A stretch of DNA of 62,374 nucleotides from Phoronis australis (taxonomy: Eukaryota > Animalia > Phoronida), in assembly GCA_002633005.1 (NCBI GenBank), contig NMRA01001056.1:1-62374 (forward strand), in the 5' to 3' direction. A program made the translations under genes and the position numbers. Below are positions 5,596 through 61,924 of the stretch, one piece after another. Numbering within the stretch: the first letter of the stretch is position 1; each line of letters opens with the position of its first letter. The notes under the pieces are model-generated. The model did not search any database. It was not told the DNA's origin and saw only the letters and a list, made by a program, of their open reading frames with translations.

Positions 5596-5695
5596 GTAAG
5601 TGGGCTGTAGGTTCACACAAATAAATTGAAGCCGTGAACCTGTAATCTGACTTGATAACACAACGCTGGTCTCATCACCGGTGCTTATTAATTAT

Positions 5696-6640
5696 TAGAC
5701 CGGGATCCCAGACCTTTTTTGGGCATGAAAAGGTTACCAATTATCTTTGGTGCCACAGTGCTCTGTGGGTATCCTAATGCTTGGAAATGGCCGTCTGACA
5801 GGTTCGCTTTGGTGGGTGTGGTCGGGGGGGCCAAGAGAATGATGCTCAAAAATTGAGCTAGATCAACTTTTCTGGTAACCACTTCAAACTGCCTGGGATA
5901 CCTCCTAGGTAATCCACTGTATCAAAATTGGTCACTGCCAGACAATTTCAGTGGTGGGGAGTATCAGCCAGACGGTTATAAACAAGGTTAAAAAATTGAG
6001 CTAGATCAATCCAAGAGGTAACCGTGTGAATCCAGTTTCAAAATATTCACCGTGAGCCCAGGTATCTCGAATGAACACTGCCAGACAAATCTAGTGGTGG
6101 GTTAGCCCCGCCAGACATGCCTAAATACCCAAGTTGAGCTAGATCAACCCACCAGGTAACCGTTTGAAACCAATTGCACGATGTTCAGCATCACTGTACA
6201 TGGCACAAGTGTTAGATGCCAGAAAGTTTCAGTGGTGGAGTGTCACTGCCAGACGATTATCATTTAAGGGTTAAAAATTGAGCTAGATCAACCCAAAAGG
6301 TAACCGCTTAAAACCAGTTCCAAAATATTTACCGTTAGCCCAGGTATCACGAATAAACATTGCCAGACAAATCTAGTGGTGGGTTAGCCCCGCCAGACAC
6401 GCCCAAAGACCTGAGTTGAGCTAGATCAACCCAAGAGGTAACCGCATGAAACCAGTTGCAAAATATTCGCCGTAAGCCCTGGAGGTATCAAGAATAAATA
6501 CTGCTAGACAAATCTACTGTTGGGTTATCCCCGCCAGACACGCCCAAGTACATGAGTTGAGATAAATCAACCCCCCCAGGTAACTGTTTGAAACAAACCA
6601 TCCAATGTTAAGCATCACTGCACGTGGCACAACAGTAAGA
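5696..6640 (+). repeat. Modular TIR arm: ~140-bp tandem units
   Basis: GAGCTAGATCAA...GGTAACC core at 5855, 5998, 6136, 6280, 6418 and 6559; inverted counterpart at ~9310-10343. Confidence 0.9.
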
Positions 6641-8688: not shown

Positions 8689-11009
8689 GACTCAGAGATA
8701 CAAATAGTCCGAGAAAACGAGATATAAGTCCACTAAAAAGGTGCAAACGCACAATTCATTGCACGTACAGCTCCGATAGTGGTACTTTTTTTGAGTCAAC
8801 TGACTATTTTGTCTGTAAAAGGTCCGCATCACCAAGAATTCGAGCCCCCCATATTGAAGGCTGGGTGCGCGCGTGAGTAACACGCTTAAATACAACCAGA
8901 TAAACAATTTTGTTAAGTCATTCACCGACTAAACTTCATATTTCCGTTTGAGGATGCAATGAGGTGTAATCACTCATTTAAGTATGGCTGATTTGAAACT
9001 TTGTCAGGAGATAATGCGAGAATGTTCTCTTCCCCCTAATTAAGCTGAGTCAAAAGCCTTACTGAAATTTCTACAGTGTCGACATTTGCAAAATACCAAA
9101 GGTCCACCGTTCTTGAAATTCGAACCACCCGCCACTCAATGCTGGCTACGGGCCTGAATAGGATAATTTATATGCATTTGAGTAGTAGAGAGATGGGGAC
9201 ATCTAATATAAAGTCGCCCCTGCATCGACCAAACCTCTGTATGCTACTGTCCCATTGCTAAAAATGTCTGTAAAATACCTTTTGTTGCATGCAGAATGTT
9301 GCTCAACATTATGCAAATGGTTTCAAACGGTTACCTGGCAGGTAAATCTGGTCGAACTCGGATATTTCATCGTGTGTGGTGGGGCTGATCTACAACTAGA
9401 CTTGTCTCGCAGTGTTTATTCATGATACATAGGCTTACGTAGAATATTTTGCAAGGTTTCATGTGGTTACCTTTTAGGGTTGATTTACCTCAAATTTCAG
9501 CCCTTTAGTCTGGGAGGGACACCCCACCACTGAAATTGTCTGGCATCTTACTGTTATACGATGTACAGTGATGCTGAGCATCGTGCAGTTGGTTTCAAAC
9601 GGTTACCTTGTGGGTTAATCTAGCTCAACTCAGGTATTTGGGCATGTCTGGCGAGGCTAACCCACCACTAGATTTGTCTAGCAGTGTTTGTGATACCTGG
9701 GCTTACGGTGAATATTTTGGAATTGGTTTTAAACGGTTACCTCTTGGGTTGATATAGCTCAATTTTTAACCCTTTTTGATAATCATCTGGCAGGGGTACC
9801 CCACCACTGAAATTGTCTGGCATCTAACACTTGTACCATGTACAGTGATGCTGAACATCATGCAATTGGTTTCAAACGGTTACCTGGTGGGTTGAGCTGG
9901 CTCAACTCGGGTATTTGGGTGTGTCTGGCGGGGCTAACCCACCACTAGATTTGTCTGGCAGTGTTCATTCGGGATACCTGGGCTCACGGTGAATATTTTG
10001 AAACTGGATTCACACGGTTACCTCTTGGATTGATCTAGCTCAATTTTTTTACCTTGTTTGCAATCGTCTGCCTGATACTCCCCACCGCTGAAATTGTCTG
10101 GCAGTGACTAATTTTGATACAGTGGGTTACGTAGGAGGTATCCCAGGCGGTTTGAAGTGGTTACCAGAAAAGTTGATCTAGCTCAATTTTTTAGTGTCAT
10201 TCTCTTGGCTCCCCTGACCACACCCACCAAAGCAAACCTGCCAGACGGCCATTTCCAAGAATCAGGATACCCACAGAGCACTGTGGCACCAAAGAACCTT
10301 GGTTACCTTTTCATGCCCAAAATAGCTCTGGGATCCCGGTCTATATCTGTTAATCCAAATACAAAGTGTGACACTGTGGCGAGAATATACAGTTCATTTA
10401 CATAATGAAACCGCGATCAAGCTTGGCAAATGTTTCGACTGTCAAAGAAACGAGATCCACCTCGATAGCTGCAGACTGCGACAGTAGTCAATACATTACA
10501 TCGGCAGCATTTGTAAACAATGTGTAACTCAGTTGCTTAATGAACTTCGAGATATACGTCCCGATCATGCAGAAGAGCGCACTGTCCGAAATGTGAGAAT
10601 GATGGCCAATGCCACTAATATCGACGTGTCCGAAATTTCAGAAATAGAGATGAATGCCAAATTTGACCGTTTCCCAAATTTCAGAATCAAAAAATCTGTT
10701 TGGGGTTGGATTTAGGTGTCCAGAATTTGGGAGACTTCGCTAAGTTTGGGAATTTTTACAGTATGATTATTTTTGCATGATATGTATTGAAACCGTGTTT
10801 TAGATTCGTCAGGTTAGATTGTTTTGATAACTGTGATCAGTAGGCCTACCCAAGTGGTGCGTTTTGAGTCGCAGAATATGTAAGTAAAATATTTAACTAT
10901 ATTTTCATTTTCTAGGAGTTTATTTATAGAAAACCAATTAGATGTATCCGCTATCCGAGTCTGAGTTAAGGAAAATACTGTTCATATTATTACTTCTCAA
11001 CTCCATCTT

Positions 11010-15965: not shown

Positions 15966-16352
15966 GCCGGTCTCCAATCTTTTTACTCGAAATGGAACTC
16001 GAAATTAGGTTTGGCATTTTCAACTCTACTTTTGAGCGAACTCAAGATAAGTGTCTATTATTCTATGCTCGAGTACACAATAACTTACGTAGATAATTTA
16101 TTGCCCTTAGTTCACAGTTTATAAACCCAATATTAAAGCAATAAGTTCGAGTTTGAACTCGAAATTTCGAGTTTTTACTCGAGATTGTAGCACGAATATA
16201 AGGGTCATCAAGGGCAAACTTGAACTAAAAACTCCTATGCATAAACTATAATGTATTTGAGCACAGTCTGATAACCAATTATCTTAAGTTCGCACAAAAG
16301 GAGCAGAGAAATATTTTCAAGTTCGTTTCGAGTAGAAAGATTAGAGACCGGG
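15966..16352. mobile_element. Harbinger-like MITE (CTCGA family)
   Basis: Inverted ends CCGGTCTCCAATCTTTTTACTCGAAA and TTTCGAGTAGAAAGATTAGAGACCGG. The LTR begins at its right tip. Confidence 0.75.
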
Positions 16353-17201
16353 TGTGGTGTAATGATTCGTGTTGCGGCCGACAGATGGCGCGCACGTGGT
16401 AGTAATTAAAACAACACACGAATACCTCAACCAATAAAATACGTCTATTAATTTGCAGCATTGTGATTTACAAACAATAGTTTACAATAAGTTGCGAGAC
16501 TGACGACTAACTGAATGAGACGCGATGTCACTTCTAGAGAAAGTACTAAACAACAATGTCACTAGTTACCAGTAGCAACCGCACATGCAAACACATTACA
16601 TTCGCAACAGAACTAACCCTCTAGAACAATCGCTAGGCTGGTTTGAATTGACTAACAGGCTGAGACCAACACCTGTGTTAAATGTCTATACCTCGGTTAT
16701 ATACTTTAGACTTGATTCGTGGGTTTTCTGTCCGGTCCTGGTACTCGTCTCTGCCGTTCACTGTCTGGAGATCGTGACTTCGCAGTTTTCGAAGACTCAA
16801 GTTGGCGTGTTCGGTGCAGTCTGGTTGGTCTGCTTCTGTTAGTGTCTTAAATAATACCTTTGGAGCCATCACGTGATGGTCCCACCTCTTTTAGTACATC
16901 TCTCTTATAACCAGCTAATTGACTATCCTATAGAAATTTCTTGCATAACTGCCACTCTTCTCAGATTTGCTAAACCAGGGATGTGCCTATCCTCTGAGGA
17001 ATCTCCATATAATCGCCACTCTAGAGGTATGTACATCCTTTAGGAATCTCAACTACCACAGAAGTATACACATCCCCTGGGAATAGACTAAGACATGTTT
17101 GCATGCACGTGGAGAACACAAAACAGAAGTATGCACATACCCTGGGAATATTTTAAGACATATTTGCATGCACGTGGAGGGCAGTGCCTCATTATATCAC
17201 A
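16353..17201 (-). repeat. 3' LTR
   Basis: Direct repeat of 25619-26508. Minus-strand ends are TGTGATATAATG...CATTACACCACA (imperfect inverted repeat). Confidence 0.95.
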
Positions 17202-17212
17202 CTCCCCCTTTT
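17202..17212 (-). promoter_or_regulatory. Polypurine tract
   Basis: AAAAGGGGGAG directly abuts the TG of the 3' LTR. Confidence 0.9.
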
Positions 17213-17666
17213 GTTAAGCCAAAACATTTACACAATAAGTTTTTTGGAAGTCGTAAATTTTCCGACAATGCAAAGTTTCTCCCAGGTGATCGCCATACAA
17301 CTGCAATAGATACAAAAAAATTGAATGATAAAACAAGGGAAGTCGTCAGCCTCCAGATGATCGTTAAACAGGTTAACAAACAGCATCTCACAACGAAATA
17401 TCAACCACACTAAACTATCCCAACAATTAATATAATGGAACACACACATACAGTATGCTTCTGTCATCAAACTGAACTTTGTACCAACCCCTCATTACAT
17501 AATCAAATATACCCTATATCTATTGAAATTATAATTATGTTATAAATATGTTACAGTTTCCCTCAAACCAAATCTACCAAAATATTTCATATCATAACTG
17601 ATTAACTAAACGTGAAGGTGCCACCCCAAACTAAACTAACTGGAGGGGGTGGACCTGTGGCGTATG

Positions 17667-18041
17667 TTAGAAGCCTGCCGCCAACAGACTTTCAGGGACG
17701 TCTGCCACTGCTATGGGCATACGTTTCGGAGGGCGTCCCCCCAGCTCCACTTCCAAGCAAAATATACTAACTACGTCGCCTGTATGACCCCGGTTAGTGT
17801 ATTTAACCTGGGCGTACTCTACCCCCATTGCGCATGGGCCGCCCCACGCCTGACTGTCGCCCTGGAGCCCCTCGTACGCACGGTTCCGTGAATACCGGAC
17901 CCCAGCGAAGTCGCTTAATGATAGAACAGTCATATCAGCAGTCAGGTCCATGTGGAACATAATCCACTCGCCGTCCACGGAGGCATCGAGTCGTACCGCC
18001 GGCAGAGTTTTGTATACAACTTCCTGCTGCTGGGCTGCCAT
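17667..18041 (-). CDS. Accessory ORF downstream of env; retropepsin-like (pseudo)protease, 124 aa
   Basis: Intact ORF with caacaATGG context. FHMDLTADMTVLS and IAVADVPESLLAAGF align by eye with the retropepsin D(T/S)GA and ILG.DF motifs. Confidence 0.6.
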   Translation of the reverse strand: MAAQQQEVVYKTLPAVRLDASVDGEWIMFHMDLTADMTVLSLSDFAGVRYSRNRAYEGLQGDSQAWGGPCAMGVEYAQVKYTNRGHTGDVVSIFCLEVELGGRPPKRMPIAVADVPESLLAAGF

Positions 18042-18361
18042 TGTTGATCGTGTTCCTCTAATAGTTCCATATTTTATATATATGTTACGTATATCTTGTG
18101 ACTATTCGGAATGTTAATAACCACCACCTTCCTGGCAACTATCTAGCGTACTCTACTGTAAGGTTCAGTAGTACTACTACGATGTATACTGACAGCTCGA
18201 AGTCACATGGAGGTTTCCTTCTGGCCCTCTCCAGTTTCCGGATCCAAGGTAGGATACATACGTCGGACGAATTGCTTCATCTCGATTGCTTTGCCATTCC
18301 ACTGAGTCGATACGGTCGGGTGGTCGTCAGCACTGGGTTTCTCCCCAGCCGGTGACGTCTG

Positions 18362-20219
18362 TCAGGCATCGTTCGGTGCGCTCATGAGTGCGAATGCTGG
18401 CGGTGCACTTGCAACTGGGCGGCTACCATCGGTTGACACAGGCTGATACTGTTTGAGTTTGGCACATGCAATTTGTCTACGTTTCAAGAAAACAACCCCA
18501 AAATTAATAGGGATGCTGCTATTCCTAGAGCAACATATAACCAAAATTCATTGTTGGGGGTCCAAGGTTTTGGAATTTCCAAGTTTCGTAAATCAGTGAC
18601 TAAACCGTCCAGGGGAATTTCGGGTAAGTGAGCGAGACGTGGCAGTATTTTTACTTCCACATGTTTAGGAAAGGCTGCAATATAAGGAGACCACATCGTG
18701 AAGGATCCTTTTCGAATTCTCAAAACTCGAGCGAAGCTATCAGGGTGCTCGTATCTAGATTCCCTGTGAAAAGTTCCCAGGAGGGTCATAGTTGGGTTTG
18801 TGGCCTGGCATCCGTAATCGACGTGTATCATATTTACCCGAATGTCCACCGTAACTGATTTAGTGTTAGTGCGACTGTGGTTGCACAGGAGGGCAAATCT
18901 TGTAATCTCGTTACTAACTACAGCGTACCAGCCAGATCTCAGATATATGGCCTGTGGTAAGGCTATATTTGTTTTAATAGAAATACGACAGAGCCTTTTG
19001 ATAGCATCGTTAAACTTCATGAACAGAGCCACCACACAATCTTTGCTCAAATTAACAGGGCGTAACGGTTGTCGGGTTTCACAAAAATTAAGCGACGAGC
19101 ATGCCTTCATGCTGGCATAATCTAGTAAGCCATAAGACGTTCGTTCTTGATTTATGGCTTACGCCGTGGCCTCCAATGAATACTTTGCCAAAATGTGAGA
19201 GCGGTTGGAAATAGGGAATGGAGCCGGTAGATTATGAATTTGAAATAATTCCATCAAGCGTAAGTGTCAATTAATGAAATCCAAGATTCGTCCATTTTCC
19301 CACGCAGTATGACACGGGAGAGACTTATAATATTGGAACTGTACAACTCCGTGTCAGGATCAAAAGGTAATTTTAAATGGCGTGGAATATTTGTTCGTAT
19401 GTCCTTTAATAAATTGCGTAATGCTTCCGGTTGAACCACCGCTGGAGTAACTTGTCCTAGAGACACTATTCCTATTTGACTTTCAATGTGAGCTAAATAG
19501 CCTAAGGCTATTTGCGCTGCCAATTCCAAATGGTTTAAAATGAGTTCGAAGTGTATGTAACTCTGGGTGAAGACCGACAAATCCTGCATTTCATCATGTA
19601 GCATATCAGTCACGTTATTAAGACGTTCTATTTCATAAGTCGAAAGAATCAAGTCATTCAAGGTCTCTCGATTTCTATTTACTTTGGTTCTAGTGGCTTT
19701 CATTACGGTTACCCTTTTCAATGCGTTAGTGACAATCCTCTTTTGGTTCCTCACTATCATATCGATTGTTTCCCTAATAGCTTTAACATCATCATCAGTG
19801 GCTGTGCCAAATAGCCAATGACTGATTTTCCCCATAAAAGGCAGGAGACTCTGTTTGCTTCTGTTACCTCGAAATTGGGCCAAAGTGTTATAGCCAGTCA
19901 ACAACTCGTCTACGGCCTCTTTTGTGAATCTGATATCATCAATTTGTTTTCTCAATCTGGAAAAATATCCCAAGAAATTGACATCTTTGGGGTCAGCGTA
20001 CTTTTTCCTTACTTGAGTATGCGTATAGTAAGCATGTTCTATGTCCCGTGAAAACTGGGACATGAACTCAGAGAATTCGCTGAGGTCAATAAAACTCGTC
20101 ACCCACCAGTGTCCCCACGAACTATAAAATAAATTAATTTTCTCAAAAACTGCCCCATTTTTGACAATGACGCATTGCACGATACCAGCCAACAACAGCA
20201 AACCTGTTAATCGTTGCAT
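18362..20219 (-). pseudogene. env: env: baculovirus F/errantivirus-type envelope fusion glycoprotein, frameshifted
   Basis: Signal peptide MQRLTGLLLLAGIVQC, furin-site position RSKQ followed by fusion peptide SLLPFMGKISHWLFGTATDDD, heptad region, Cys-rich ectodomain, TM (WLYVALGIAASLLILGL) and a basic tail. Confidence 0.88.
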
Positions 20220-20488: not shown

Positions 20489-22232
20489 CTATAAATAAGC
20501 CGCGGAGGAATTTTGGGTTGTTTTTCTACACTTTCGGCTTCTCCTTTTGTCCAATCTCGCGAGGACGTTCACATCCATGTCGTCATCGTCTGGTCGTGGT
20601 CCCATGGCAATGTCCATATCTGTCTCATCCGACGGTATAGACTGTTCGTCGTTTGGTGCGGAGGGGTCCGTCATCGGATCCGACTCCGCTTTGGACTCGG
20701 GTCCTTCGCTTTCAGATGATGGGGTCCCTGGATCCTCCATCTGAGGTGCTGGCTTCGTCTGAGCCAACGTCTTCACTTGCCCCCTCTGTTGGAGCCTTCT
20801 TTGAAGTTCCGCTAAGTCATCGGAAGATGAATCCCCCTTCATTTGGCGGAAATGATCCTGCAGACCTTGCTGTGGTTCGTCGTCAGACACATCGCTTTCT
20901 TCACTAGAACTGGGAGGGACGGCGTAGCGCGCTCTTCTCATTTGTGGATAATCGTCGTCATTCACCTTCCAGTCGTCGATTTGTGCCCACCTCAAGTTGT
21001 CAATGTGTGACTTGGTGACTGTCCCATCTAACTGATTCCTGATGACATATGTTTTTTCAGACAGTCGTTCTAGGACGCGCCAATAACCTGTCCACTTAGG
21101 GTCCAGTTTGCTGGTTTTAGAATTATTTTTAAGGTACATGGGATCGCCAACTTTCAATTCAACCAAAACTCTACCTTTGTTCGCGGTAGCTAGTCTTTTG
21201 TTTTGATGGTGTTTTATCACCCGATAAACTCCTAAAAACTCTATGTTGGTTTTGTAGGATAACCTTATGTTATTCCTCGCCCACGTACTTAGCACGTGGC
21301 CGCATTATATTATGTACAGGAAGTTTAGGGTCTCTACTGAACATAAGAAAATAACTGCTATACCCAGTATAATTGGTATGAAAATTTAAGCATGACTCTG
21401 CTTGACTGAGATAGACATCCCATTGTTCCGGGTTTTCATGGCATAATTTACTCAAAATGTCACCAAGTACTTTGTGTGATCGTTCGACTCGGCCATGTGC
21501 TTTTGGATTGTAAAAACTTGTGGTAACATGCCGAATGTTAAATGATTCCAAAACATCTTTCACTGTTTTGTTTACAAATTCAGAGCCGTTGTCTGAGACC
21601 AAAATGTTCATTATACCGAATCTACAAAAGGTATCAGTGGTCAGGATTCATGCGATTGTGGCGGCACTCTTATCCGGCATCGGATACAACAATGTATAAT
21701 TTGAAAACCAGTCAGTCAGAGTCAAAATATATCGGTTACCACTGGGTGATGATTTCATAGGACCGACACAATCTATTGCTACTTGTTGCCAGGGGCCGTT
21801 CACAACATTAGACGCCCCTAGCGGAGATTTAACTGCTTTTAGATTTTGTTCCTGGCATGTAACGCATTCTGAAACATACTTCTCAATGTCTATAAACATT
21901 CTAGGCCAGAAATAACTGTTCCTAGACGACTGATATGTTCGATCTATCCCTGCATGTCCTAGTTGATCGTGATATTGTTTGATGACTAGCGACTGTAAAT
22001 GTTCAGAGACGTACAGACGAACCTTGACGTCGCCGTGATCGTCGGAAACATAATATAGAACATTTTCTTTGAGTAAATACTTATTTCCAATTCTTTTGCT
22101 AGGCTTAGGAAACGACAGTTCATCAATTATTGTCCTACACTCTTGATCTTTCTTTTGTTCCTCATGCATATTCAGTTCTAACTTAGGCATTTGCAATTCA
22201 GGGGTAAAATTAGGTATTGGAGGACTCTCCAT
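20489..22232 (-). pseudogene. Integrase with long acidic C-terminal tail
   Basis: HHCC (HDQLGH...CVTC), IDCVG, SDNGSEF, GRVERSH and GPY/F-like KLDPKWTGYWRV, split over three ORFs. Confidence 0.93.
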
Positions 22233-22377
22233 TTCATGAGATTTAGGATCAATTCAGCTGTTATCTACTACATTAACTTGTGCTATCGTAGCCTGAACCT
22301 CAAAAGTCCTATCGTCTATATCGAGAGTTTCCTCGTCAGTCGCATTATCGTCGTTGAAGGGCGCTCTGCTCAGCAAG

Positions 22378-23626
22378 TCAGCTATCGGAGATAAGTACCG
22401 ACCATTGCGCCACTTTCTTATTTTGTATGTCGCTTTTAAGCAAATAAATGAGGGGCATATGGTCCGTGAAAAGCGTGATTTTGGAATTGTAAATGTAGTG
22501 TTCGAATTTCTTAAGGGCCATCAATGATGCGAAACATTCCTTTTCAATGGTTGCCCAACGCTTTTGCGTGTTAGTCAATTTTTGCGACATAAGGTAGATA
22601 GGTTTTTCAACATCTTCATCTTGACACTTTTGTACCAAACAGGCCCCAATTGCAAAATCACTCGCATCGGCGTATATGATATAACTCCATTTGGGATCAG
22701 GACAATTTAGCATCGGAACGGCGGAAAGGTGTTCTTTGATAAATTTGAAAGCGTTTTCGCATTCAGGTGTCCATTTAAATCTGGCATACTTTTAGTCAGT
22801 TCAGTCAATGGAGTCATAATGCCCGCCAAGTTGGGAATAAACCTCCGATAGTATGACAGGATTCCTTTAGTGCCCTTACTTCTTTTACCGTGGCTGGTCG
22901 TTTCATTGATCTAATAGCCGAAATTTTGGCTGGATCAGGGCGGATCCCTTCTTTATCTACTATGAAGCCCAGATAGTTCGTTTGAGGCTTAAGAAGTTGG
23001 CATTTGGACAATTTCAACTTCAAATTATGTTCTCTGAGGCGTTGGAAAACGATTTTCAGATGTTCAACGTGTTCAGTGACACTTTAACTGTAAATAATGC
23101 AATCATCGATATGGGCCCGAGCAAACGGGAGTCCTTCTAAAACGATTGACATGAGTTCTTGGAAGAAACTGGGACTATTGCAAAGTCCGAATGGCATAAC
23201 TTGAAATTGGTAGAGATTGTGACCAGTTAAAAATCCCGGAGAGAAAGCGGTCTTTTCTTTGTCATCACGGTGCATTTGAATCTGCCAGAAACCACTACGT
23301 AACTCCAATGAACTATAAATACTTGAACCCCTAAGATCGTTCAGTATGTCATCAATTTTCGGTAGAAAGAACGAATAACCTTTAGTTACACTGTTTAGTT
23401 TCCTATAGTCTACACAAAACCTCAAGCTACCATCCTTTTTGGTTACTAATACTATAGGTGAGCAAAAGTTGGATCTAGAGGGTTCTATGACCTTCGCAGT
23501 AAGCATTTTATCCACCGCTTCTTTAGCTATTTGTTGTTTTGCTATCGGAAGCCGATAAGGCCTCTGCTTGACAACTGTGCCGTCTGGCACGTCTATGCGC
23601 ATTTGTACCGTGCTCGTTTTCCCCAA
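22378..23626 (-). pseudogene. Reverse transcriptase and RNase H
   Basis: KKDGSLRFCVDYRKLN, MPFGLCNSP, HIDD (YxDD position), YLGFIV, DASDFAIGACL, EKEC and TDH. Confidence 0.95.
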
Positions 23627-23668
23627 ATCGAGATCGGTTGCTGCGAAAACATCGCTATTCTGCTTTAA

Positions 23669-24060
23669 TTATGTTTTCACTAAGCTAACATACTCATCAG
23701 GTGTATCAATCTCGGATAAATCCAACGTTTGTTTACTAGCCGACTGGGCTGTTGTTGATTTATCTAACACATTCGCAATATTTGCATTACGTAGTTCTTC
23801 AACCTGTCCTACTGCAACTCCTCGTTTTATCTTGATATATCGGCCAGAATTATTGATTATTTCTACCGGAAATTTTCCAGCCTTGCCCGGCTTTATTACT
23901 GCGTTTGAAACTGATAAGCCAGGTTCTGCATTTAGGAATCCGGTTGTTAAAGGTGACACCTGGAATATTTGTTGTCTTTTGCTACCCTTGGCGGCGCAAC
24001 TTCTAGCGCGACATACAACCTTGGAATAAGGTCTAACTATAATTTCTTTGATTACTCTAA
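23669..24060 (-). pseudogene. PR-RT linker with degenerate dUTPase-like signature
   Basis: GLSVSNAVI...FPVEIINNSGRYIKIKRGVAVGQ resembles dUTPase beta-strand motifs, without the catalytic Asp. Confidence 0.45.
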
Positions 24061-24112
24061 CATAAAACTTAACCAGCGAATCTTGAATTAAAGGTGTGTA
24101 AAATTCTTTTAT

Positions 24113-24442
24113 TTATAACATTCTGAGATCAAAGTAGACACGACAATTATTTTTATGAAGAAAGTCTTCTCCAATTATCATTCTTCGATTTACATCTCGA
24201 ATCACCACAAATTCATGTTTGAGAATATTGTTTCCGATTTTTAAGCTTAACAGGACACAAGCGAGGACATTCAAATGTTGATTATTCGCTGTCTGAATTG
24301 CAGGTTTTCGATTAACTATTTCTACCAAGTCTTTTCGTTTAAGCTCTTCAAATGTAACTTCCGAAATACCGGATATTGCAGCACCCGAATCAATTAACGC
24401 TCTGACTCGCGTCTGTACTTGAATACTATCCTCGCTTCCCAA
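24113..24442 (-). pseudogene. Aspartic protease (retropepsin)
   Basis: ALIDSGAAISGIS, IQTANN and IIGEDFL. Confidence 0.92.
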
Positions 24443-24466
24443 AAAACATCAAGTTACAAGATCATC

Positions 24467-24508
24467 CTGACCCGCGGAAGCTCTTGAGTCAGTGCACATT
24501 AGTTTCCC
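24467..24508 (-). promoter_or_regulatory. -1 ribosomal frameshift signal at the gag/pol junction
   Basis: G GGA AAC immediately before the gag TAA, with a downstream CTGACTC/GGGTCAG stem. The -1 frame is the protease frame. Confidence 0.8.
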
Positions 24509-25517
24509 TGTGGGTTAACGTCGTTTGGCGTGGTATCAGCAGGGCTTGGGTTGTCAGAGTAATTAACTGGCTTCTGATTCGCTTGGGCGGCCAAAAATCT
24601 TTTAAAACTAAAACAGTCACGTTTCATGTGGCCAGGTTTTTTACAAAAGAAACATCTGATTGGTTCTTTGTCTAGGGCGTTAACAGTTCTGGGCGTCCGA
24701 CAGTCCCTCGTCCTATGATTTGTTCTGTTGCAAATCCTGCATCTTTGAGGAGGGGATATTTTATCTATGTCCATAGGGCTGATTTCCCTGTTATTTCCCA
24801 GTTATAAATTCATTCGCGCCCATAGGTGTATTTCTTGGACAGCAACTTTTAGGGCGTCCCTGAGAGTTGTTGGGCCTGAACGTAGGACGTGCTCTCTTAT
24901 TCTCGCGTTCCGGAGCCCATCCACAAAAAACCCAATTAATTGTTCTTGTAGAACGTCCAATGCCGCCTGATCGTCAAATGCCTCCCGCGCCGCCGACAAC
25001 AGTCGCTCGCCATACATTTGCACGCTTTCTTGTAGAACGTCCAATGCCGCCTGATCGTCAAATGCCTCCCGCGCCGCCGACAACGGTCGCTCGCCATACA
25101 TTTGCACGCTTACGTTTGGTCGTTGCATAATTGATTTTAATCGACCAAATGCCAGACTTTTGTCAGTGATAGGGGCAAAGTGCAACATAATTTCTGCTTT
25201 AAACTGCTCATATGTGCATTGTGGGTGGTCTGCCATATAACGTTTAATGAATGCGGAAACTTCACCCCCCCCGATCTTTGATATGCAATTAAGATTTGTT
25301 TCCTGTTATCCATATTGGGAAAAATTACAGCCATCTTTTCTATCTCGCTCACCCAGGCTCGAAACCCATGAACATCTCCTGAGAAAACGGGGATATTTGA
25401 TGCCAGTGACGTTTCGCTCATGGAATTCATAGCATCGGTAACATCTCTGGTGAAATTACCAGCAAGTCCCGTTAAAAATTCCGCTAAATCTACAGATGCT
25501 TGTTGCTGCTGTGCCAT
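24499..25517 (-). pseudogene. gag: gag with two CCHC zinc knuckles, frameshifted
   Basis: IPVFSGD...W capsid-like start; CRICNRTNHRTRDC and CFFCKKPGHMKRDC knuckles. Confidence 0.9.
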
Positions 25518-25588: not shown

Positions 25589-25607
25589 ATCCGGCCGCAA
25601 GGCACCA
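25589..25607 (-). promoter_or_regulatory. Primer-binding site (TGGTGCC..., tRNA-His-like, imperfect)
   Basis: TGGTGCCTTGCGGCCGGAT begins about 11 nt after the 5' LTR. The tRNA identity is tentative. Confidence 0.6.
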
Positions 25608-25618
25608 AAAAGGACTTG

Positions 25619-26508
25619 TGTGGTGTAATGATTCGTGTTGCGGCCGACAGATGGCGCGCACGTGGTAGTAATTAAAACAACACACGAATACCTCAACCAA
25701 TAAAATTCGTCTATTAATTTGCAGCGTTGTGATTTACAAACAATAGTTTACAGTAAGTTGCGAGACTGACGACTAACTGAATGAGACGAGATATCACTGC
25801 TAGAGAAAGTATTAAACAACAATGTCACTAGTTACCAGTAGCAACCGCACATTACAAGTCGCAACAGAACTAACCCTCTAGAATAATCGCTAGACTGGTT
25901 CGAATTGAGTAACAGGCTGAGACCAACACCTGTGTTAAATGTCTATACCTCTATATACTTTAGACTTGATTCGTGGGTTTTCTGTCCGGTCCTGGTACTC
26001 GTGTCTGCCGTTCACTGTCTGGAGTTCGTGACTTTGCAGTTTTCGAAGACTCAAGTTGGCGTGTTCGGTGCGGTCTGGTTGGTCTGCTTCTGTTAGTGTC
26101 TTAAATAATACCTTTGGAGCCATCACGTGATGGTCCCACCTCTTTTAGTACATCTCTCTTATAACCAGCTAATTGACTATCCTATAGAAAATTCTTGCAT
26201 AACTGCCACTCTTCTCAGATTTGCTAAACCAGGGATGTGCCTATCCTCTGAGGAATCTCCATATAATTGCCACTCTAGAGGTATGTACATCCTTTAGGAA
26301 TCTCAACTACCACAGAAGTATACACATCCCCTGGGAATAGACTAAGACATGTTTGCATGCACGTGGAGAACACAAAACAGAAGTATGCACATACCCTGGG
26401 AATATTTTAAGACATGTTTGCATGCACGTGGAGGAGTATGAACATCCCCTGGAAATATTTTAAGACATGTTTGCATGCACGTGGAGGGCAGTGCCTCATT
26501 ATATCACA
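25619..26508 (-). repeat. 5' LTR
   Basis: Direct repeat of 16353-17201 with one extra internal ~50-bp unit. Confidence 0.95.
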
Positions 26509-27284
26509 CTCGCCCGGGTCTTTTATAACCGCTGGGAATCTGAGTTCATTTTCAAATAAACCAGAGCCAAGCCGGTATACTCTTTCATTTAGGACTGTCG
26601 CCTTTCTTTGAAGTGGTGCGCACGTGTGAGTTCACGCACTTGAATTGCTGGAGTAGGCCTACAGTTTACGTTGGCAACAACATGTGAAAGACAAATCCTA
26701 TTTCGCACACGTAGCCCCAGAAACAAGTAAAGGGTTTGAGAATTTCTTGGCAACTGAAAGTAAAGACGTGACCATCGTTTGGCGATTAATAAGGTTGTCA
26801 TTTTCACTTTGGCTGTCTTAATACGATAAAAAGGAGAAGCACATCTCAGTCTAAGTCATGATTGTCTGCCGGGACCGCTTGCGCGCTAACGGTGTCGCAG
26901 TGCGATATCAGGGATATTGTCGTGGATATTTGGTACTGTATGTAATAAGGGCATCTTATGTGAAAAATAAATATTTTTGTCCACCACAAAGTTTGGTAAG
27001 TTGATCACTTAAGAATTAGTAGAAAAGCTGTTGTTTTGGGAAGTTTTATCACGTGTTAAGCAGTGGCCCGAAACTTTCTTCGGCGAATCCAGGATTTTAC
27101 AAAAGTGGCCGAAAGTGTTAGCCAATGAAATGCGTCAAAGATCACTCATGTTCGGTTAACCGCCCATCCCCTACTTTAGGTGGATTTTCGATTTAACCGC
27201 CCACTGCTCGGTTAACCGCCTTCCCCCGATTTTTTGGATTCGCCAATTTAACCGCCCAGGGCGTTAACCCAAACGATTACGGTA

Positions 27285-29145: not shown

Positions 29146-29594
29146 ACAGAACTTGAGCTTGAAGTTGGTGCTTTTGTTCACAGCTTCACCTGGAACTCAC
29201 AATTCTGTGTTTGCTGAAACACGGCTTGTAGTTATGTCTCACGGGAAAGTGGGTGACTTAATAGAATATACAAGATGTAAAAATCGCAAAAAAAAAACTC
29301 CTCTATTGTCTCAGGTCGTGCAACGAGAGGGTCATTGGGTAGAGGGTTTTACCAATTTTTTGCAGAAAAATAAAAATAAAAATTTTCCTTCATGATCGCT
29401 TCCAACTTGGCATGCTTTGACTACTTAATACAAATTTTGGCAATTTTGCATTTGCTCTAAAGCTGGAAAATCAGGGGAGCAGAAATAAAAAGATGTCCTA
29501 AACTCAGAAAGGTGGTGGATCTAAACCAAGATTCAAATCATGGAGGACAAAAACAGAAAAAGGAACGCCCAGCACCAAAAGCACTGCATTAAAT

Positions 29595-30290
29595 GTGATT
29601 TCTAAGAAGATGATGCAAACTACACTGGATTTTAGAAGTATTACCTCAGTCCATGAGGCAGATCGCAGTACCTGTGAAAGTGAACCTGAAATCCTGAGGT
29701 TTCAAAAGGCACTTACATCGCCTGAAGTGATCAAAACTTTGAGAGAGCAACTGATAGATCCTGCCCTTAATGAGATTAAGAGCTTCTATGAATCCAAGCT
29801 AAAGGAAAAAGACGACCAGATTCATGACCTCAAAGTGCAAGTGAGTGACCTTCAAAATAGTGTGGACAGTCTCAAGCAATATTCTCGGCAAAATAACACA
29901 GTACTCCACGGAATCAACGAGCCAGAAAATGAATGCAAAGGGAACACAGATATAGCTGTTATTGATCTCGGCAAGATGCTTAATATTGACATTAGTTACG
30001 AAGACATATGTAGATCTCACAGACTAGGACTCAAGAAACCCAATCAGTCGAGGCCAATCATGTGCAAATTCATAGCTTACAACACCTGTGCGTTGTTTCT
30101 CCATCATAAAAGTAAATTCAGATCCCAAGACAGACCACTGTACATTAATGAGACTTTGACAAAAAGGAGATCCAGTCTATTTGCTCGCTGTCGGCGCCTC
30201 GTGAAATCACACACAATAAACAGAACCTGGACCCATGCTGTATTTTTCCACGTCTCTATGGTTAATTATCGACATAATTTTAAGATTTAA
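29595..30290 (+). pseudogene. LINE ORF1 (coiled coil + RRM, L1/Tx1/CR1 type)
   Basis: LKQYSRQNNTVLHGINE, DICRSHRLG, RPIMCKF and LYINETLT. Confidence 0.85.
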
Positions 30291-38388: not shown

Positions 38389-38732
38389 GTTTGTGACTGT
38401 GTAATATGTGCAGTTTGGCAGTAAGTTCTCATTAATGTGTGCAATGCTTTTCTGTAATCAGATTGGTAAGCAATAAGTGATTGCACTGTCATCGATGACA
38501 CTATGATGTCAAAAAAACCCTCAAGATTTACTATTTCATGATAATATTTGGAATACATTATAGCGACAACTTAAAGGTGAGAAAGTAATGTCTCAGATCA
38601 GCCTCAGCGCGGAATCAAATTTTCAGCCTTCTACTGATGGAGCATCATCCCACACAATAAATGTATTATAAGTGTATCTGACTGTAAGTGATTTCAGGAA
38701 ATGTCTGATAAGAGTTGTAGATTTGAAATAAA

Positions 38733-41700
38733 TAGACCGGGATCCCAGAGCTTTTTTGGGCATGAAAAGGTAACCAATTTTCTTTGGTGCCACAGTGCTC
38801 TAGGGGTATCCTGATGCTTGGAAATGGCCGTCTGGCAGGTTCGCTCTGGTGGGTGTGGTCAGGGGAGCCAAGAGAATTACACTCAAAAATTGAGCTAGAT
38901 CAACTTTTCTGGTAACCACTTAAAACTGCCTTCAATACCTGCTACGTCATCCATTGTATCAAAATTGGTCACTGCCAGACAATTTCAGTGGTGGGGAATA
39001 CCCGCCAGACGAACATATACAGGGTACAAAAATTGAGCTAGATCAATCCAAGGGGTAACCACTTTAAACCAGTCGCAAAATATTCACCGTAAGCTCAGGT
39101 ATCACGAATGAACACTGCCAGACAAATCTAGTGGTGGGTTACCCCCGCCAGACACGCCCAAATACCTGAATTGAGCTAGATCAACCCATCAGGTAACCGT
39201 TTGAAACCAATTGCACGATGTTCAGCATCACTGAACATGGAACAACAGTTAGATACCAGACAATTTCAGTGGTGGGGTGGCCCTGCCAGACGATTATCAA
39301 AAAGGGTTAAAAATTGAGCTAGATCAACCCAAGAGGTAACCGCCTAAAACTAGTTCCAAAATATTCACCGTAAGCCAAGGTATCACGAATAAACACTGCC
39401 AGACAAATCTAGTGGTGGGTTAGCCCCGCCAGACACGCCCAAATACATGAATTGAGCTAGATCAACCCTGAGGTAACCACATAAAACCAGTTGCAAAATA
39501 TTCGCCGTAAGCCCAGGTATCAAGAATAAATACTACCAGACAAATATAGTGGTGGGTTATCCTCGCCAGACACGTCCAAGTACCTGAGTTGAGCTAGATC
39601 AACCCGCGAGGTAACAGCTTGAAACCATTTGCATAATGTCGAGCAACATTCTGCATACAAAAATATACTTTACAGACATTTTTAGCGGTGGGGCAGGAGC
39701 GAGCAGAGGTTTGGTAAGTCGCCCCTATCTCTCTACTCAAGTGAATATATCCTATTTAGGCCCGTAGCCAGCATTGAGCGAGGGTGGTTCAAATTTCAAG
39801 AACGGTGGATCTTGGTGTTTTGCAAACGTCGACACTGTAGAGTTTTCGGTGATGCCTTTTACGCAGCTTAATTAGGGGGAAGGGAAATCTGTATACATGA
39901 TGACGACTCATGTTCATGAGATGAGAAGGAATTTGTAATACCAGATACGAGGATGCTGTGACGGTTGCTCGCAAAGAACGGGACACAAATTAGGATGTAA
40001 TGTGGTCCAAAAAGAGAACACTCTCGCGTTATTTCCTGCCGAAGTTTCAAATCGGCCATGCTTAAATGAGTGATTACACCTCATTGCATACTCAGACGGA
40101 AATGTGAAGTCTACTTGGCGAATGACTTAACAAAATTGTATATCTGGTTGTATTTTAGCGTGTTACTTAAGTTGCTTACATCGCTGGAAATGAGGACATC
40201 CCACTATTTCGAAAGTTTACTACTCGGAAGGTTCACTGGCTATTCTGAAGGTTCACTGACTATTCTGAAGGTTCACTGACTATTCTGAAGGTTCACTACT
40301 TCAACGATTCACCACTTCGAAGATTCACCGTTCCAAAATATCTAAACTTTCAGACTCAGATGTAATTTTTAAACTTTTACATGCTAAAATGAACGATGTT
40401 TCAGCTATTAGATGCACCTATACCAAAAACAATGCCCGGGCACTAAAACACTTTGGATTTTATGTAGACAGTGACCACCGTCTCCAGCTGGCCAACACAA
40501 CCAGAAACGGTAATCAGATTTCATGCACATGCGAAATTGCCCGCATGTCTTAAAATGAGTACACACTTGCATTTTAAAATGATATGAAGTAGAAATACTG
40601 ATGAATTATCAGCCATGACACAATTCATCAAATCCATGTCAAGATCGAATCGCAGCGCGACGCACACAGCCTGGTCGAAATTAAATGAAGTTACTAGGCC
40701 ACCCTGTCCCTGCCAGTCCTCACGAAGTCAGGGAGTCCCATTTAGTCTTCTTAAATTTGAAACCGCCGTTGGTCGCCGCAGCCGTGCCCCAGATGTTGTC
40801 TCTGCTTGAGAATGAGTCGTGATCACACAACCAAAGTAGTGAACTGTCGGAATTCTGGGCCCAGTCTCGAATCTTTTTACTCGAAATGGAACTCGAAATA
40901 ATGTTTGGCATTTTTTAATCTACTTTTGTGCGAACTCAAGATAAGTGTCCATTACTTAATGCTCGAATACATAATGACTTACGTGGATGATTGATTAGTC
41001 CTAGTTTGCAGTTGACAAATTCAACATTAAACCTAAAAGTTTGAGTTTAAACTCGAAGTTTCGAGTTTTTACTCGAGTTTGAAGCACGCATATAAGGGTT
41101 TTTAAGTGCAAACTTGGACTAGAAACTCATATGCATGAACTATAATTATTCGAGCACAATCTGATAACCACTTATCTTGAGTTCGCACAAAAAGAGCAGA
41201 GAAATTGCCAAAAATAATTTCCAGTTCGTTTTGAGTACAAAGAATAGGACCGGGCCCAGGGTTTGGAATAGTGGAAATTCAAAGTAGTGATCTTTAGAAG
41301 ATAACGAACCTTCGGAGTAATGGGCATTTTGAGTACTGGACCTTCGGAGTATTGAACCTTCGTCATAGTGACATGGAACCCTGGAAATCTTTTCCATCTA
41401 GTTTGTGGCTCGTATGAAGTCTGCAGGGTTGTGCACCATTGACATTGATTGACTAGAGAAGATTTTCATTGACCAAAGTTGAGGTCTATGTCTACCTTTC
41501 CATCATTACGTGAAAATGCTCAACTGTGTATTCTCAGTGCAAGAAAACACAGTAGTTGAAGGTCTGGCTTTTAGCACGACGGAGGACTGCCTATAATGAA
41601 CTTACTGTCAGCATGTACTGAATTTAAAAGAACAGAAGCGTTCAAACGTGTACGCGCATGCATGTCAATCAATCAATCAACAATCAAAGTGGACATTGGT

Positions 41701-44528
41701 TGAACAACATATTTGCATATTTGACGATCACTTTCAATTCAAAATTTGAAAATGCCTACTCTTCTACCGTACCATGGTTGCAATTAAACCAAAAATAGCA
41801 GAAAAACAAATCTCAATTTTTCTGCTGTTTTGTTTCTTGGCCGAGTTTAAGGCATTCACTCCGCACTACTTTTTGGGTGTTCTCTCGTTGTTATTTACAT
41901 TAACATGAAGCTTACTTAGGTCTTTGGGATAGACTTTATGCTTAGGTATAGACATTAACTTCTGGACTCACTTGGTACCCTTTGTTTTAGCCACCACGCG
42001 TGTGGTTTATGAATAACATAAAGCCTCCTCTTATCGTATGCACAATCCTGTCATCTACACAAACAGCTGCACTTGGGCGAAGTTTGCCGAGTTCGGTCCG
42101 ACGCCATGTGACGCGGTTTGAATCAGAAGCGAATTCAAAATTATTGCTAACTTAGTTATCATTGTAGTTAGCACCAGTAGCTTCAACAATTTTGTTGTTA
42201 TTGTCCAATTAAACCCTATCTTTAACGAATATGCTGGGGGGTGGACCTTTTCAGCGGGGTCGGGGGTTCAATTGAACCCCCCGAACCCTCCCCCCGGCTA
42301 CTGGCTATGGGCCTGTACTATTAATAACAAAAGTAAAAAAGGTGAAGCATAAACTAGATTCTTTATTTAATTCAACTGCAATTCAGTCACTGTTTCCAAA
42401 AATATTATACATAGTGGTTGAATACCCCCTTCCCCAATGTGGATGCCCGGGTCCGTCGCCACGGTGGCTGAGCACCATATACAACATCTATGAATAATGA
42501 ATTCGAACGTGTTTTATGTTCACTATGAAGACAAAAAGCGAACAGTTCCATTGCCCGCATATCTGTGAAATGATTGTCAATCTAACTAAAATGAAAAAGT
42601 AATAGGACTCGTTATACCCACGAATCAGTTGTGAATAACATATTCGCAACATGAACAGAATTTTTTATCTACGTTACAGCTTTGATAGTTTCCACGAAAT
42701 CTAACACGACCATACGTACCCAATATCACGTGCCGCAGAGGTGTTTTCAACCTTTTTGGAGAACACCATATCAAACATAAAAAATACAGACTGTTTTAAA
42801 GAGAGGTCAACAGCCGATCTATTGAAGTTCTAGCCCTTCTTCGCTCGTAGCACTGAGAACGCATCGTTTTCCAGCGCTTCACGTAATATTGGGTTTGTCA
42901 ACTTCAACTTTTGGTAAAACAATGCATTGCCCATCTGGCATAGTTTGGGCGGTCCAGGGCAAAGAATACATCTAGCGTAGTCGGGAAAATGTTGATATAG
43001 CCACTGAAGTCATTGTTCTCGACGCATCTATGGAGTTCTCTGTGGGCTGGGTTTATGAGAAAAACGAAGATTTCCCAAAACTGACCAGTTTTCCCAAATT
43101 TGCCATTAATCACTGTGTGAAATGAAGGTAGATGGCGCGCAAACATAACACAGGCGACAGCAAAAGACGGAATTTTGGTTATTATTCCTTTTAGCAATTG
43201 CATCAAATGACTCGTCCAAAAACAAAAGGACGCAGTTTAGACTGGTAAAATAGGACAAAGAAAAATGGAAATTAGTGCAAACACAATGTGATATCCGTCT
43301 TGGACGGGTTTTTAGGTTTTGTTTTTAATAGTGAATTATGTGGAGTAATCCGCTGTTTTCGCATGGACTTGTGAGGTCGCTCCAACCTCAGGCGCGATTT
43401 TTCTGGTTTTCATGCCCTGACATAAACTTGCTGACAAAAATCTCTCACCTTGTGCAGTGACCTATGTCGTACAGACTTCGTGGCTGTATTGAAAATTAAA
43501 GTGCCTGGTTCCTGATTGTGATGCTTATTCAGCATAAATGCGCTTATAATCAATTTTGTTTCAACTCTTTATTTGTCTGATGGAGGCATCTTACTGTTTT
43601 GCCACGTGCAATGAGGCTGAAAATCGGGCGATTGGTTTCAAGCGGTTTCCTGGTGGGTTGATCTAGCTCAACTCAGGTACTTGGGCATGTCTGGCGGGGA
43701 TAACCCACGCCTAGATTTGTCTGGCAGTATTTATTCTTGATACCTGGGCTTACGGCGAATATTTTGCAACTGGTTTCATGCGGTTACCTCTTGGGTTGAT
43801 CTAGCTCAATTCATGTATTTGGACGTGTCTGGCGGGGCTAACCCACCACTAGATTTGTCTGGCAGTGTTTATTCGTGATACCTTGGCTTACGGTGAATAT
43901 TTTGGAGCTGGTCTTAGGCGGTTACCTCTTGGGTTGATCTAGCTCAATTTTTAACCCTTTTTGATAATTGTCTGACAGGGCCACCCCACCACTGAAATTG
44001 TCTGGCATCTAACTGTTGTGCCATGTTTAGTGATGCTGAACATCGTGCAATTGGTTTCACACGGTTACCTGATGGGTTGATCTAGCTCAATTCTGGTATT
44101 TGGTCGTGTCTGCCAGGGATAACCCACCACTAGATTTGTCTGGCAGTGTTCATTCGTGATACCTGTGCTTACGGTGAATATTTTGCGACTGGTTTCAAGC
44201 GGTTACCTCTTGGATTGATCTAGCTCAATTTTTGCACCCTGTATATGTTCGTCTGGCGGGTACTCCCCACCACTGAAATCGTCTGGCAGTGACCAATTTT
44301 GATACAATGGATGACGTAACAGGTATTGAAGGCAGTTTTAAGTGGTTACTAGAAAAGTTGATCTAGCTCAGTTTTTGAGTGTAATTCTCTTGGCTCCCCT
44401 GACCACACCCACCAGAGCGAACCTGCCAGACGGCCATTTCCAAGCATCAGGATACCCATAGAGCACTGTGGCACCAAAGAAAATTGGTTACCTTTTCATG
44501 CCCAAAAAAGCTCTGGGATCCCGGGCTA
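38733..44528 (-). mobile_element. Non-autonomous Academ, copy 2 (opposite orientation to copy 1)
   Basis: TAG...CTA ends, AAA TSD, modular TIRs, and transposase relic at 42904-43206 (FFALDRPNYARW). Confidence 0.87.
40858..41256. mobile_element. Harbinger-like MITE (CTCGA family)
   Basis: CTG|GGCCCAGTC...GACCGGGCC|CAG. Confidence 0.75.
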
Positions 44529-44708
44529 AAAATCACAAAAACAAATATGTATTTTTCATATCTCAACAATAATCCCAAAAATGTGTATTTCGACTGCAAA
44601 ATGATTGATGTCTGTTTTTAAACAGACATCAATCATTAAAAATGTATGAAACAGTATAGTTATTGAATTTCAAAAATAAGGGGCAAATTGGACATGTGAT
44701 TTCCTGCT

Positions 44709-59593: not shown

Positions 59594-61924
59594 ATCGTAT
59601 GCACAATCCTGTCATCTACACAAACAGCTGCACTTGGGCGAAGTTTGCCGAGTTCGGTCCGACGCCACGCGACGTTGTTTGAATCAGAAGCGAACTCAAA
59701 ATTATTGCTAACTTAGTTATCATTGTAGTTAGCACCAGTAGCTGCAACAATTTTGTTGTTATTGTCCAATTAAACCCTATCTTTAACGAATATGCTGGGG
59801 GTGGACCTTTTCAGCGGGGTCGGGGGTTCGATCGAACCCCCCGAAACCTCCCCCCCTACTGACTATGGGTCTGTATTATTTATAATAAAAGTAAAAAAAG
59901 GTGAAGCATAAACTAAATTCTTTATTTAATTCAACTGTAATTCGGTCACTATTTCCAAAAATATTATACATAGTGGTTGGATACCCCCTTCCCCAATGTG
60001 GATGCCCGGGTCCGCCGCCACGGTGGCTGAGCACCATATACAACATCTATGAATAATGAATTCAAACGTGTTTTATATTCACTATGAAGACAAAAAGCGA
60101 ACAGTTCCATATCTGTGAAATGATTGTCAATCTAATTAAAATGAAAAATCAATAGGACTCGTTGTACCCACGAATCAGTTGTGAATAACATATTCGCAAC
60201 ATGAACAGAATTTTTTATCTACGTTACAGCTTTGATAGTTTCCACGAAATCTAACACGACCATACGTACCCAATATCACGTGCCGCAGAGGTGTTTTCAG
60301 CCTTTTTGGAGAACACCATATCGAACATAAAAATACAGACTGTTTCAAAGAGAGGTCAACAGCCGATCTATTGAAGTTCTTCGTAGCACTGAGAACGCAC
60401 CGTTTTCCAGCGCTTCACGTAATATTGGGTTTGCCAATTTCAACTTTTGGTAAAACAATGTTCCCCATCTGGCATAGTTTGGGCGGTTCAGGGCAAAGAA
60501 TACATCTAGCATAGTTGGGAAAATGTTGATATAGCCACTGAAGTCATTGTTCTTGACGCATCTCTGGAGTTCTCTGTGTGCTCGGTTTGTGAGAAAGACG
60601 AAGATTGCCAAAAACTGACCAGTTTTGCCAAATTTGCCATTAATCACTGTCTGAAATGAAGGTAAATGGCGCGCAAACATAAGGCAGGCGACAGCAAAAG
60701 ACGGAATTTTGGTTATTATTCCTTTTAGCAGGTGCATCAAATGACTCGTCCGAAAACAAAAGGACGCAGTTTAGACTGGTAAAATAGGACAACGAAAAAG
60801 GCAAATTAGTGGAAACACAATGTGATATCCATCTTGGACGGGTTTTTAGGTTTTGTTTTTAATAATGAATTATGTGGAATAATCCGCTGTTTTCGCATGG
60901 ACTTGTGAGGTCGCTCCAACCTCAGGCGCGATTTTTCTGGTTTTCATGCCCTGACATAAACTTGCTGACAAAAATCTCTCACCTTGTGCGGTGACCTATG
61001 TCGTACAGACTTAGTGGCTGTATTGAAAATTGAAGTGCCTGGTTCCTGATTGTGATGCTTATTCAGCGTGAATGCGCTTATAATCAATTTTGTTTCGACT
61101 CTTTATTTGTCTGATGTAGACATCTTACTGTTTTGCCACATGCAATGATGCTGAAAATCGGGCGATTGGTTTCAAGCGGTTTCCTGGTGGGTTGATCTAG
61201 CTCAACTCAGGTACTTGGGCGTGTCTGGCGGGGCTAACCCACCACTAGATTTGTCTGGCAGTGTTTCTTCGTGATACCTGGGCTTACGATGACTATTTTG
61301 GAACAAGTTTTAGGCGGTTACCTCTTGGATTGATCTAGCTCAATTGTTAACCCTTTTTGATAATCGTCTGGCAGGGCCACCCCACCACTGAAATTGTCTG
61401 GCATCTAACTGTTGTTCCATGTTCAGTGATGGTGAACATCGTGCAATTGGTTTCAAACGGTTACCTGATGGGTTGATCTAGCTCAATTCTGGTATTTGGG
61501 CGTGTCTGGCGGGGGTAACCCACCACTAGATTTGTCTGGCAGTGTTCATTCGTAATACCTGGGCTTACGGTGAATATTTTGCGACTGGTTTCAGACGGTT
61601 ACCTCTTGGATTGATCTAGCTCAATTTTTGTACCCTGTATATGTTCGTCTGGCGGGTACTCCCCACCACTGAAATTGTCTGGCAGTGACCATTTTTGATA
61701 CAATGGATGACATAGCAGGTATTGAAGGCAGTTTTAAGTGGTTACCAGAAAAGTTGATCTAGCTCAATTTTTTAGTGCAATTCTCTTGGCTCCCCTGACC
61801 ACACCCACCAGAGCGAACCTGCCAGACGGCCATTTCCAAGCATCAGGATACCCATAGAGCACTGTGGCACCAAAGAAAATTGGTTTCCTTTTCATGCCCA
61901 AAAAAGCTCTGGGATCCCGGTCTA
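59594..61924 (-). mobile_element. Non-autonomous Academ, copy 3 (left part lost in gap)
   Basis: Near-identical to 42033-44528, ends ...GGATCCCGGTCTA, and starts exactly at the N. Confidence 0.9.

Follow-up and report, generated by a model that had tools for sequence, protein, structure and literature searches.

The window, a 62,374-nt stretch of Phoronis australis DNA, contains on its minus strand a Ty3/Gypsy LTR retrotransposon of approximately 10.2 kb. Two LTRs bound the element, one of them 5′ (25617..26508, beginning with TG and ending with CA) and the other 3′ (16352..17200), matching at 96% over 829 nt in self-BLAST and differing by 21 mismatches in 835 aligned columns; a short internal repeat is present in one copy more in the 5′ than in the 3′ LTR. 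A putative primer-binding site starting TGG (25589..25607) and a polypurine tract (PPT; 17201..17210) were read from the sequence, and no tRNA genes were found in the window. CCCGG borders both element ends (26514-26518 and 16348-16352), but its 5′ copy sits 5 nt off the TG of the 5′ LTR, so that it is ambiguous where the LTR truly begins and what the target-site duplication is.

The internal genes, all on the minus strand, are disrupted. The gag gene (24499..25517), encoding a capsid and two zinc knuckles (matches to Ty3_capsid, Retrotrans_gag and zf-CCHC), has suffered a frame change, a stop and an 84-nt tandem duplication (window 24943-25111). The pol gene (20489..24448) comprises protease (PR), spacer, reverse transcriptase (RT), RNase H (recognised by eye) and integrase, and is interrupted by several stops and frame changes; its RT matches Gypsy relatives at no more than 54% identity. 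PR (24116..24448) matched gag-asp_proteas (E=2.4e-7) and Asp_protease_2 and retains canonical D-S-G and I-I-G-E-D motifs. The env gene (18484..20216) is of F type (Baculo_F, E=3.6e-6, better than the curated threshold), and a signal peptide, an R-x-x-furin-like/fusion-peptide region and a transmembrane segment were discerned by eye. That gag, pol and env are all broken, as the original prediction held, was borne out: each consists of stop-to-stop pieces in different frames. With two LTRs accompanied by primer-binding site and PPT, gag followed by PR-RT-RH-IN, and an F-type env after pol, the element is errantivirus-like in organisation.

Several other features were seen in and around the element. 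The spacer between PR and RT (window 23672-24112, minus strand) encodes 147 beta-rich residues with no Pfam match, which we take by eye to resemble a degenerate dUTPase-like domain. Between the tail of env and the ORF described below lies a short open frame (18206-18361, minus strand, 52 codons from stop to stop), also with no Pfam match. Elsewhere in the window a dispersed family of approximately 140-nt sub-repeats occurs in both orientations (5690-6570, 9250-10350, 38720-39650, 43560-44540 and 61100-61920), as do two frames that are presumably of LINE type, one RT-like (1553-2647) and one ORF1-like (29502-30290).

A fourth ORF, of 124 codons (17667..18041, minus strand), lies between env and the PPT and 3′ LTR, and reads D-L-T-A where a protease would have D-T/S-G-A. 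It is intact and its ATG has a good start context (CAACAATGG), as predicted. The ORF has a GC content of 56.5%, whereas the 3′ flank has 35% and pol and env 40–41%, and a sense ATG ORF of at least 124 codons arose in 15/1000 block-shuffles of the interval from env to PPT. Intactness of the window copy was nevertheless rejected as evidence for a gene: gag-pol-env carries some 13 breaks (counted by eye) in approximately 7 kb, so that the odds of 372 nt staying open are roughly even, and intactness alone is weak evidence. The N-termini of gag and the fourth ORF are alike (MAQQQQ at 25517, MAAQQQ at 18041), which could be due to chance.

The length of the ORF varies between copies of the family. 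The stop after codon 124 was missing in 161/361 units of DNA depth (run X3) and in 10/17, 14/19 and 8/10 RNA reads from three runs, and the window's own frame stays open for 11 further codons before the next stop (17631..17666, minus strand), which would be coding in copies lacking the first stop. Since many copies do not share that stop and the window frame continues past it, the family has a longer form of the fourth ORF, and the window copy may be a C-terminally shortened one. A 2-base gap near codon 107 was found in one group of RNA reads (9/20, 6/11 and 3/12 reads).

Selection on, and RNA across, the fourth ORF

Copies were compared by mapping four public runs from the same organism onto the ORF, one of DNA and three of RNA, in which related copies are numerous. 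The 40 best-supported of 98 differences were analysed, of which 35 lie within the coding region. Third positions account for 22 of these 35 (p=3e-4), every one of them silent, a silent share of 22/35 compared with a neutral expectation of 0.24–0.29 (binomial p 1e-6 to 3e-5). None of the 35 created a stop in the ORF frame; the other five frames each contained 3–6 stops, and had 4–18 silent sites of 35. The resulting pN/pS of 0.18–0.24 among the best 40 of 98 differences is a rough value, coming from a selected subset and from sites shared among haplotypes, which are therefore not independent lineages, and the private mutations of the dead window copy that are among the differences would raise it. 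Conservation in other copies, the check proposed alongside the original prediction, thus gave a pN/pS of about 0.2 over the 35 in-ORF differences: the fourth ORF is a protein-coding gene kept by purifying selection, and this is the firmest result of the analysis.

RNA coverage is less readily tied to the gene. In run X6, depth was 10–30 over 17150-18711 and 0–7 further into env and integrase, a step that could come from a sub-genomic RNA of the 3′ end, from libraries biased towards 3′ ends or from diverged reads dropping out. RNA from several diverged copies covered the 3′ part of the element 5–10 times more deeply than env and integrase, and nearly all in one direction; LTR-driven antisense RNA is a possible source of this 3′ coverage. 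The reads come from other copies (0/74, 2/53 and 0/30 reads at 99% identity or above), and first mates were nearly all on the minus strand, which would place the RNA antisense to the ORF if the libraries are stranded as most are, a reading made without a strand control. A putative TATA-like box (18072..18078, minus strand) lies 31–37 nt before the ATG, but RNA depth runs through it, and there was no cluster of read starts or ends, nor a splice joint, among those listed for the RNA runs. An acceptor-like site is present at 18675, and between the env stop and the fourth ORF there are nine other ATGs, including one out of frame at 18070, 29 nt upstream. Within the ORF, loose ends of RNA reads cluster at 17936-17941 (runs X6 and X7), as would be produced by a rearranged copy. 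The suggestion that the gene is separately expressed is so far unsupported: the RNA is from other copies, passes through the TATA-like box and may be antisense to the fourth ORF.

Retropepsin likeness and the altered active site

Direct searches with the fourth ORF were blank. It had no match in Pfam, NCBIfam, PHROGs or PDB sequences, no homologue in a set of 5.8 billion proteins or in 1.84 billion representatives, and no match among viral and metagenome contigs, so that in the databases searched no homologue was found outside the species' own runs. The element's env and PR were likewise blank as queries in the large sequence collections; these collections therefore lack the element family, and the blanks say nothing about the rarity of the ORF. 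Among 78 Gypsy loci fetched by RT, phmmer returned 0 matches to the fourth ORF, and a protease profile detected no additional protease-like ORF outside pol, most loci being too short to tell. An F-type env was present in 2/78 loci. In one of these (L060:5200-7876) the gag, pol and env frames are intact, and neither the fourth ORF nor the protease profile has a match in the 700 nt after env; the other (L043:255-8084) is a single 2610-aa open frame uniting gag, pol and an F-type env-like region. A further locus (L078:800-12038) is a tandem pair of near-identical Gypsy gag-pol units.

Likeness to retropepsins emerged from more sensitive comparisons. The ESM Atlas gave the fourth ORF a recognition score of 2935, with RVP, Asp_protease_2 and RVP_2 clusters at 0.90–0.92 and all 10 of the 10 best family-bearing matches in one clan, that of the retropepsins; once six retropepsin families were left out, the highest-scoring match stood at 0.85. 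The features shared in these matches number 119–145 of 256, fewer than the 170 usual within a family, and the list is headed by an unnamed cluster. No dUTPase family matched, either in Pfam (to E 5) or among the Atlas matches listed. A profile was also built from 45 Gypsy PRs in the 78 loci, leaving out the window's own PR. Its best local match to the ORF was the Asp loop, at 1.2 bits (reached by 39/2000 shuffles), while the glocal score, over three gap settings, was reached by 5, 6 and 22 of 1000 shuffles (p 0.005–0.02) and by 2, 2 and 5 of 312 real non-protease pieces. At the eight non-silent sites lying in aligned columns, the residue of the other copies fitted the profile better at five and worse at three, with the largest gains, of 3.3 and 6.8 bits, in highly conserved columns.

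It had originally been claimed, by eye, that the ORF aligns end to end with the element's own PR. Pairwise this did not hold (BLASTP E=0.69, not significant), but the register itself was recovered by MAFFT, hhalign and the glocal profile: in a MAFFT alignment with 43 Gypsy PRs, D32 falls on the invariant Asp and residues 16–55 are ungapped, and hhalign found the same register, though with a probability of just 2.5–5.9% (E about 0.006). Both alignments place an insertion of approximately 20 residues before the flap. AlphaFold2 run on the single sequence gave a model of pLDDT 41 with no retropepsin match in fold searches and nothing above Z 4.2; PAS-like rows at Z ≤4.2 were rejected as noise. 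Supplied with 43 protease rows, AlphaFold2 returned pLDDT 77 with a core above 90, and Foldseek matched this model to the EIAV, HIV, SIV, Ddi1 and Rickettsia APRc proteases; as the alignment dictates the fold, the model demonstrates compatibility and nothing beyond it. Taken with the profile and language-model results, a retropepsin fold for the product of the fourth ORF is likely, not proven.

The predicted changes to the active site, in which Asp is kept, D-T/S-G becomes D-L-T and the Gly of the second motif becomes Ala, were reproduced in the alignment with 43 PRs. L33-T34 stand in the place of T/S-G, forming D-L-T-A, and A121 aligns with the helix Gly, giving L-L-A at 119–121 instead of an ILG-type motif. 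In Gypsy PR alignments little or no variation is seen at the T/S and G of the first motif or at the helix Gly (D-T/S-G is present in 45/45 seed PRs by construction of the seed). Nor is D-L-T a private lesion of the window copy: within the best 40 of 98 differences, none altered codons 32, 33 or 35, and those at codons 34 and 121 were silent. The altered motif is, on this mapping, common to the copies whose reads fit across it; reads of the most diverged copies stop fitting at 17956, just 5′ of the motif. A template combining D-T/S-G and ILG motifs defines clan AA in the available part of its description (PMC2642776). The product of the fourth ORF has neither motif, placing it outside the active clan AA peptidases, and, if the retropepsin fold holds, catalysis is very probably absent.

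The aligned product is 14% identical to the element's own PR and 20% identical to three other Gypsy PRs (MAFFT). Recent duplication of the element's own PR was rejected on the 14% figure, and, as the value is lower than that for unrelated Gypsy PRs, the ORF would be an old duplicate or a capture, in agreement with the age first proposed for it.

Candidate roles and known systems

Retropepsins must dimerise, and the timing of their activity decides whether particles mature or fall apart. With a probability of roughly 0.55, we propose that the fourth gene of this Ty3/Gypsy family encodes a catalytically dead protein with the retropepsin fold, which would work through binding, likeliest in the processing of the element's own polyprotein. 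The original prediction of a pseudoprotease accessory gene stands in part: a selected coding gene, a probable fold, an altered motif and an old origin were recovered, while separate expression was not.

Processing of the element's own polyprotein ranks first among the candidate targets, but tentatively. The product might temper or time the activation of PR, either by capping a PR monomer or by sitting on the peptides at which Gag-Pol or Env is cleaved, and maturation would thereby be delayed until enveloped particles form. In the accessible text of one study, retroviral proteases work only as dimers and HIV assembly suffers when PR is activated too early (PMC13612098), and a dead paralogue could consequently act as a brake. 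In the consulted part of another, the Thr/Ser of D-T/S-G forms the fireman's grip, essential for dimer formation, and dimers of the gammaretroviral and Ddi1 type rest on C-terminal strands (PMC7072860). The fourth ORF lacks the grip Thr/Ser, and its window copy is too short to include the C-terminal dimer strands, which longer copies may have; both points weaken the case for heterodimerisation with PR. Complex prediction for PR and the ORF product scored 0.00, in a run made without an alignment and with the partner unfolded, and speaks neither for nor against binding. It is doubtful that the product is, in full, a stand-alone dead retropepsin derived from a retroviral protease that binds and restrains the PR of its own or rival elements and so controls maturation.

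Ranked next is a target outside PR: a retropepsin-fold monomer or homodimer might bind peptides of a host factor, or serve in Env trafficking, a role only slightly less probable than the first. Loss of the fireman's-grip residue, the mere 14% identity to the element's own PR, the insertion of approximately 20 residues before the flap, and encoding by a separate gene, which would bring no automatic co-packaging with Gag-Pol, are all in keeping with such a module, but no result points to any host target, and the best-kept parts of the protein, the active-site loop (D, A, D, T and hydrophobics) and the C-terminal helix region, are those that would face a partner subunit.

It is somewhat unlikely that the selected gene encodes another or a novel fold and owes its protease likeness to a beta-rich pattern and one Asp. 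The blank searches of curated libraries and databases, profile p-values of just 0.005–0.02, an unbiased model that matched nothing above Z 4.2 and the unnamed cluster at the head of the Atlas matches would all suit such a fold. Set against them, language-model features and the Gypsy PR profile are independent and agree on one clan, both motifs are correctly ordered and spaced, and at the most conserved columns the profile is matched better by the residues of other copies.

A non-canonical but active second protease, directed for example at Env or a host restriction factor, would account for an Asp that is kept and unchanged within the best 40 of 98 differences, and reads of the most diverged copies stop fitting just 5′ of the motif, which might differ there; it is very improbable given that neither T/S nor G is present in the motif and that the helix Gly is absent too. 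Least probable of all is that no protein gene now exists and that the silent bias is the trace of a plus-strand frame overlapping the ORF, or of an RNA element, the RNA being antisense, for although one plus-strand frame shares third positions with the ORF (18/35 differences silent in it, within the best 40 of 98) and first mates lie on the minus strand, that frame has three stops and gains another from the listed differences, compared with no stops and 22/35 silent in the ORF frame, and the step up in GC exactly spans the ORF.

If the favoured reading of a dead, binding protein is correct, a dead protease paralogue occurring naturally in the element's own gene set would represent a new form of self-regulation, or of interference between elements, and a natural model for blocking an obligate-dimer protease. 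Precedents for both the idea and its hazards exist. Engineered trans-dominant inactive monomers of HIV-1 PR suggest that a protease needing two subunits could be poisoned by a single dead one; those monomers keep the Thr, Gly and dimer strands and lose the Asp, whereas the fourth ORF keeps the Asp and has lost the Thr and Gly. As a cautionary case, a retroviral segment historically named ‘pseudoprotease’ later proved to be a dUTPase; it shares with the fourth ORF the name and a by-eye likeness to proteases, but here there is no dUTPase match. A literature search, its scope lying outside most subscription journals and Repbase/Dfam, turned up no LTR element with an additional or inactive protease gene.

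Ty3/gypsy elements with an F-type env have been described as ‘ancient errantiviruses’ with three ORFs (Chary and Hayashi 2026; PMC13524379, as far as available). The present element resembles them in its LTR-gag-pol-env order, its F-type env and its animal-like host context, but differs in the selected fourth ORF behind env, accessory ORFs receiving no mention in the available portions of the survey text and supplements (PMC13524379). Even if the product has no regulatory role, a selected gene behind env shows that errantivirus-like elements outside insects have accessory genes overlooked by three-ORF surveys. Small extra genes under purifying selection are known from other Ty3/gypsy elements: in the accessible parts of the respective reports, LTR elements of bdelloid rotifers have an ORF3 encoding a GDSL esterase or a DEDDy exonuclease (PMC5408684), and elements of the MDG1 group have extra sORF1 and sORF2 (PMC11952523). 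Unlike the fourth ORF, these replace env or precede gag and encode active enzymes or fusogens, and none of those covered there is derived from a protease or placed behind env (PMC5408684, PMC11952523). A dead protease relative behind env would extend accessory genes to a new kind, one expected to bind and not to cut.

Another close comparison is with the retropepsins of clan AA, including Ty3/gypsy PR, HIV and EIAV PR, Ddi1 and ASPRV1 as described in the available sections of two reports (PMC2642776, PMC7072860). With these the product of the fourth ORF shares a likely fold, the position of the Asp, the pattern of the active-site loop and a strand-helix C-terminus. It differs in having neither D-T/S-G nor the helix Gly, in its insertion of approximately 20 residues, in being encoded by a stand-alone gene outside pol and, in the window copy, in ending before the C-terminal dimer strands. 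The product thus probably belongs to the clan AA fold and not to the active clan AA peptidases, and as a pseudo-retropepsin it would add a pseudoenzyme branch to that clan.
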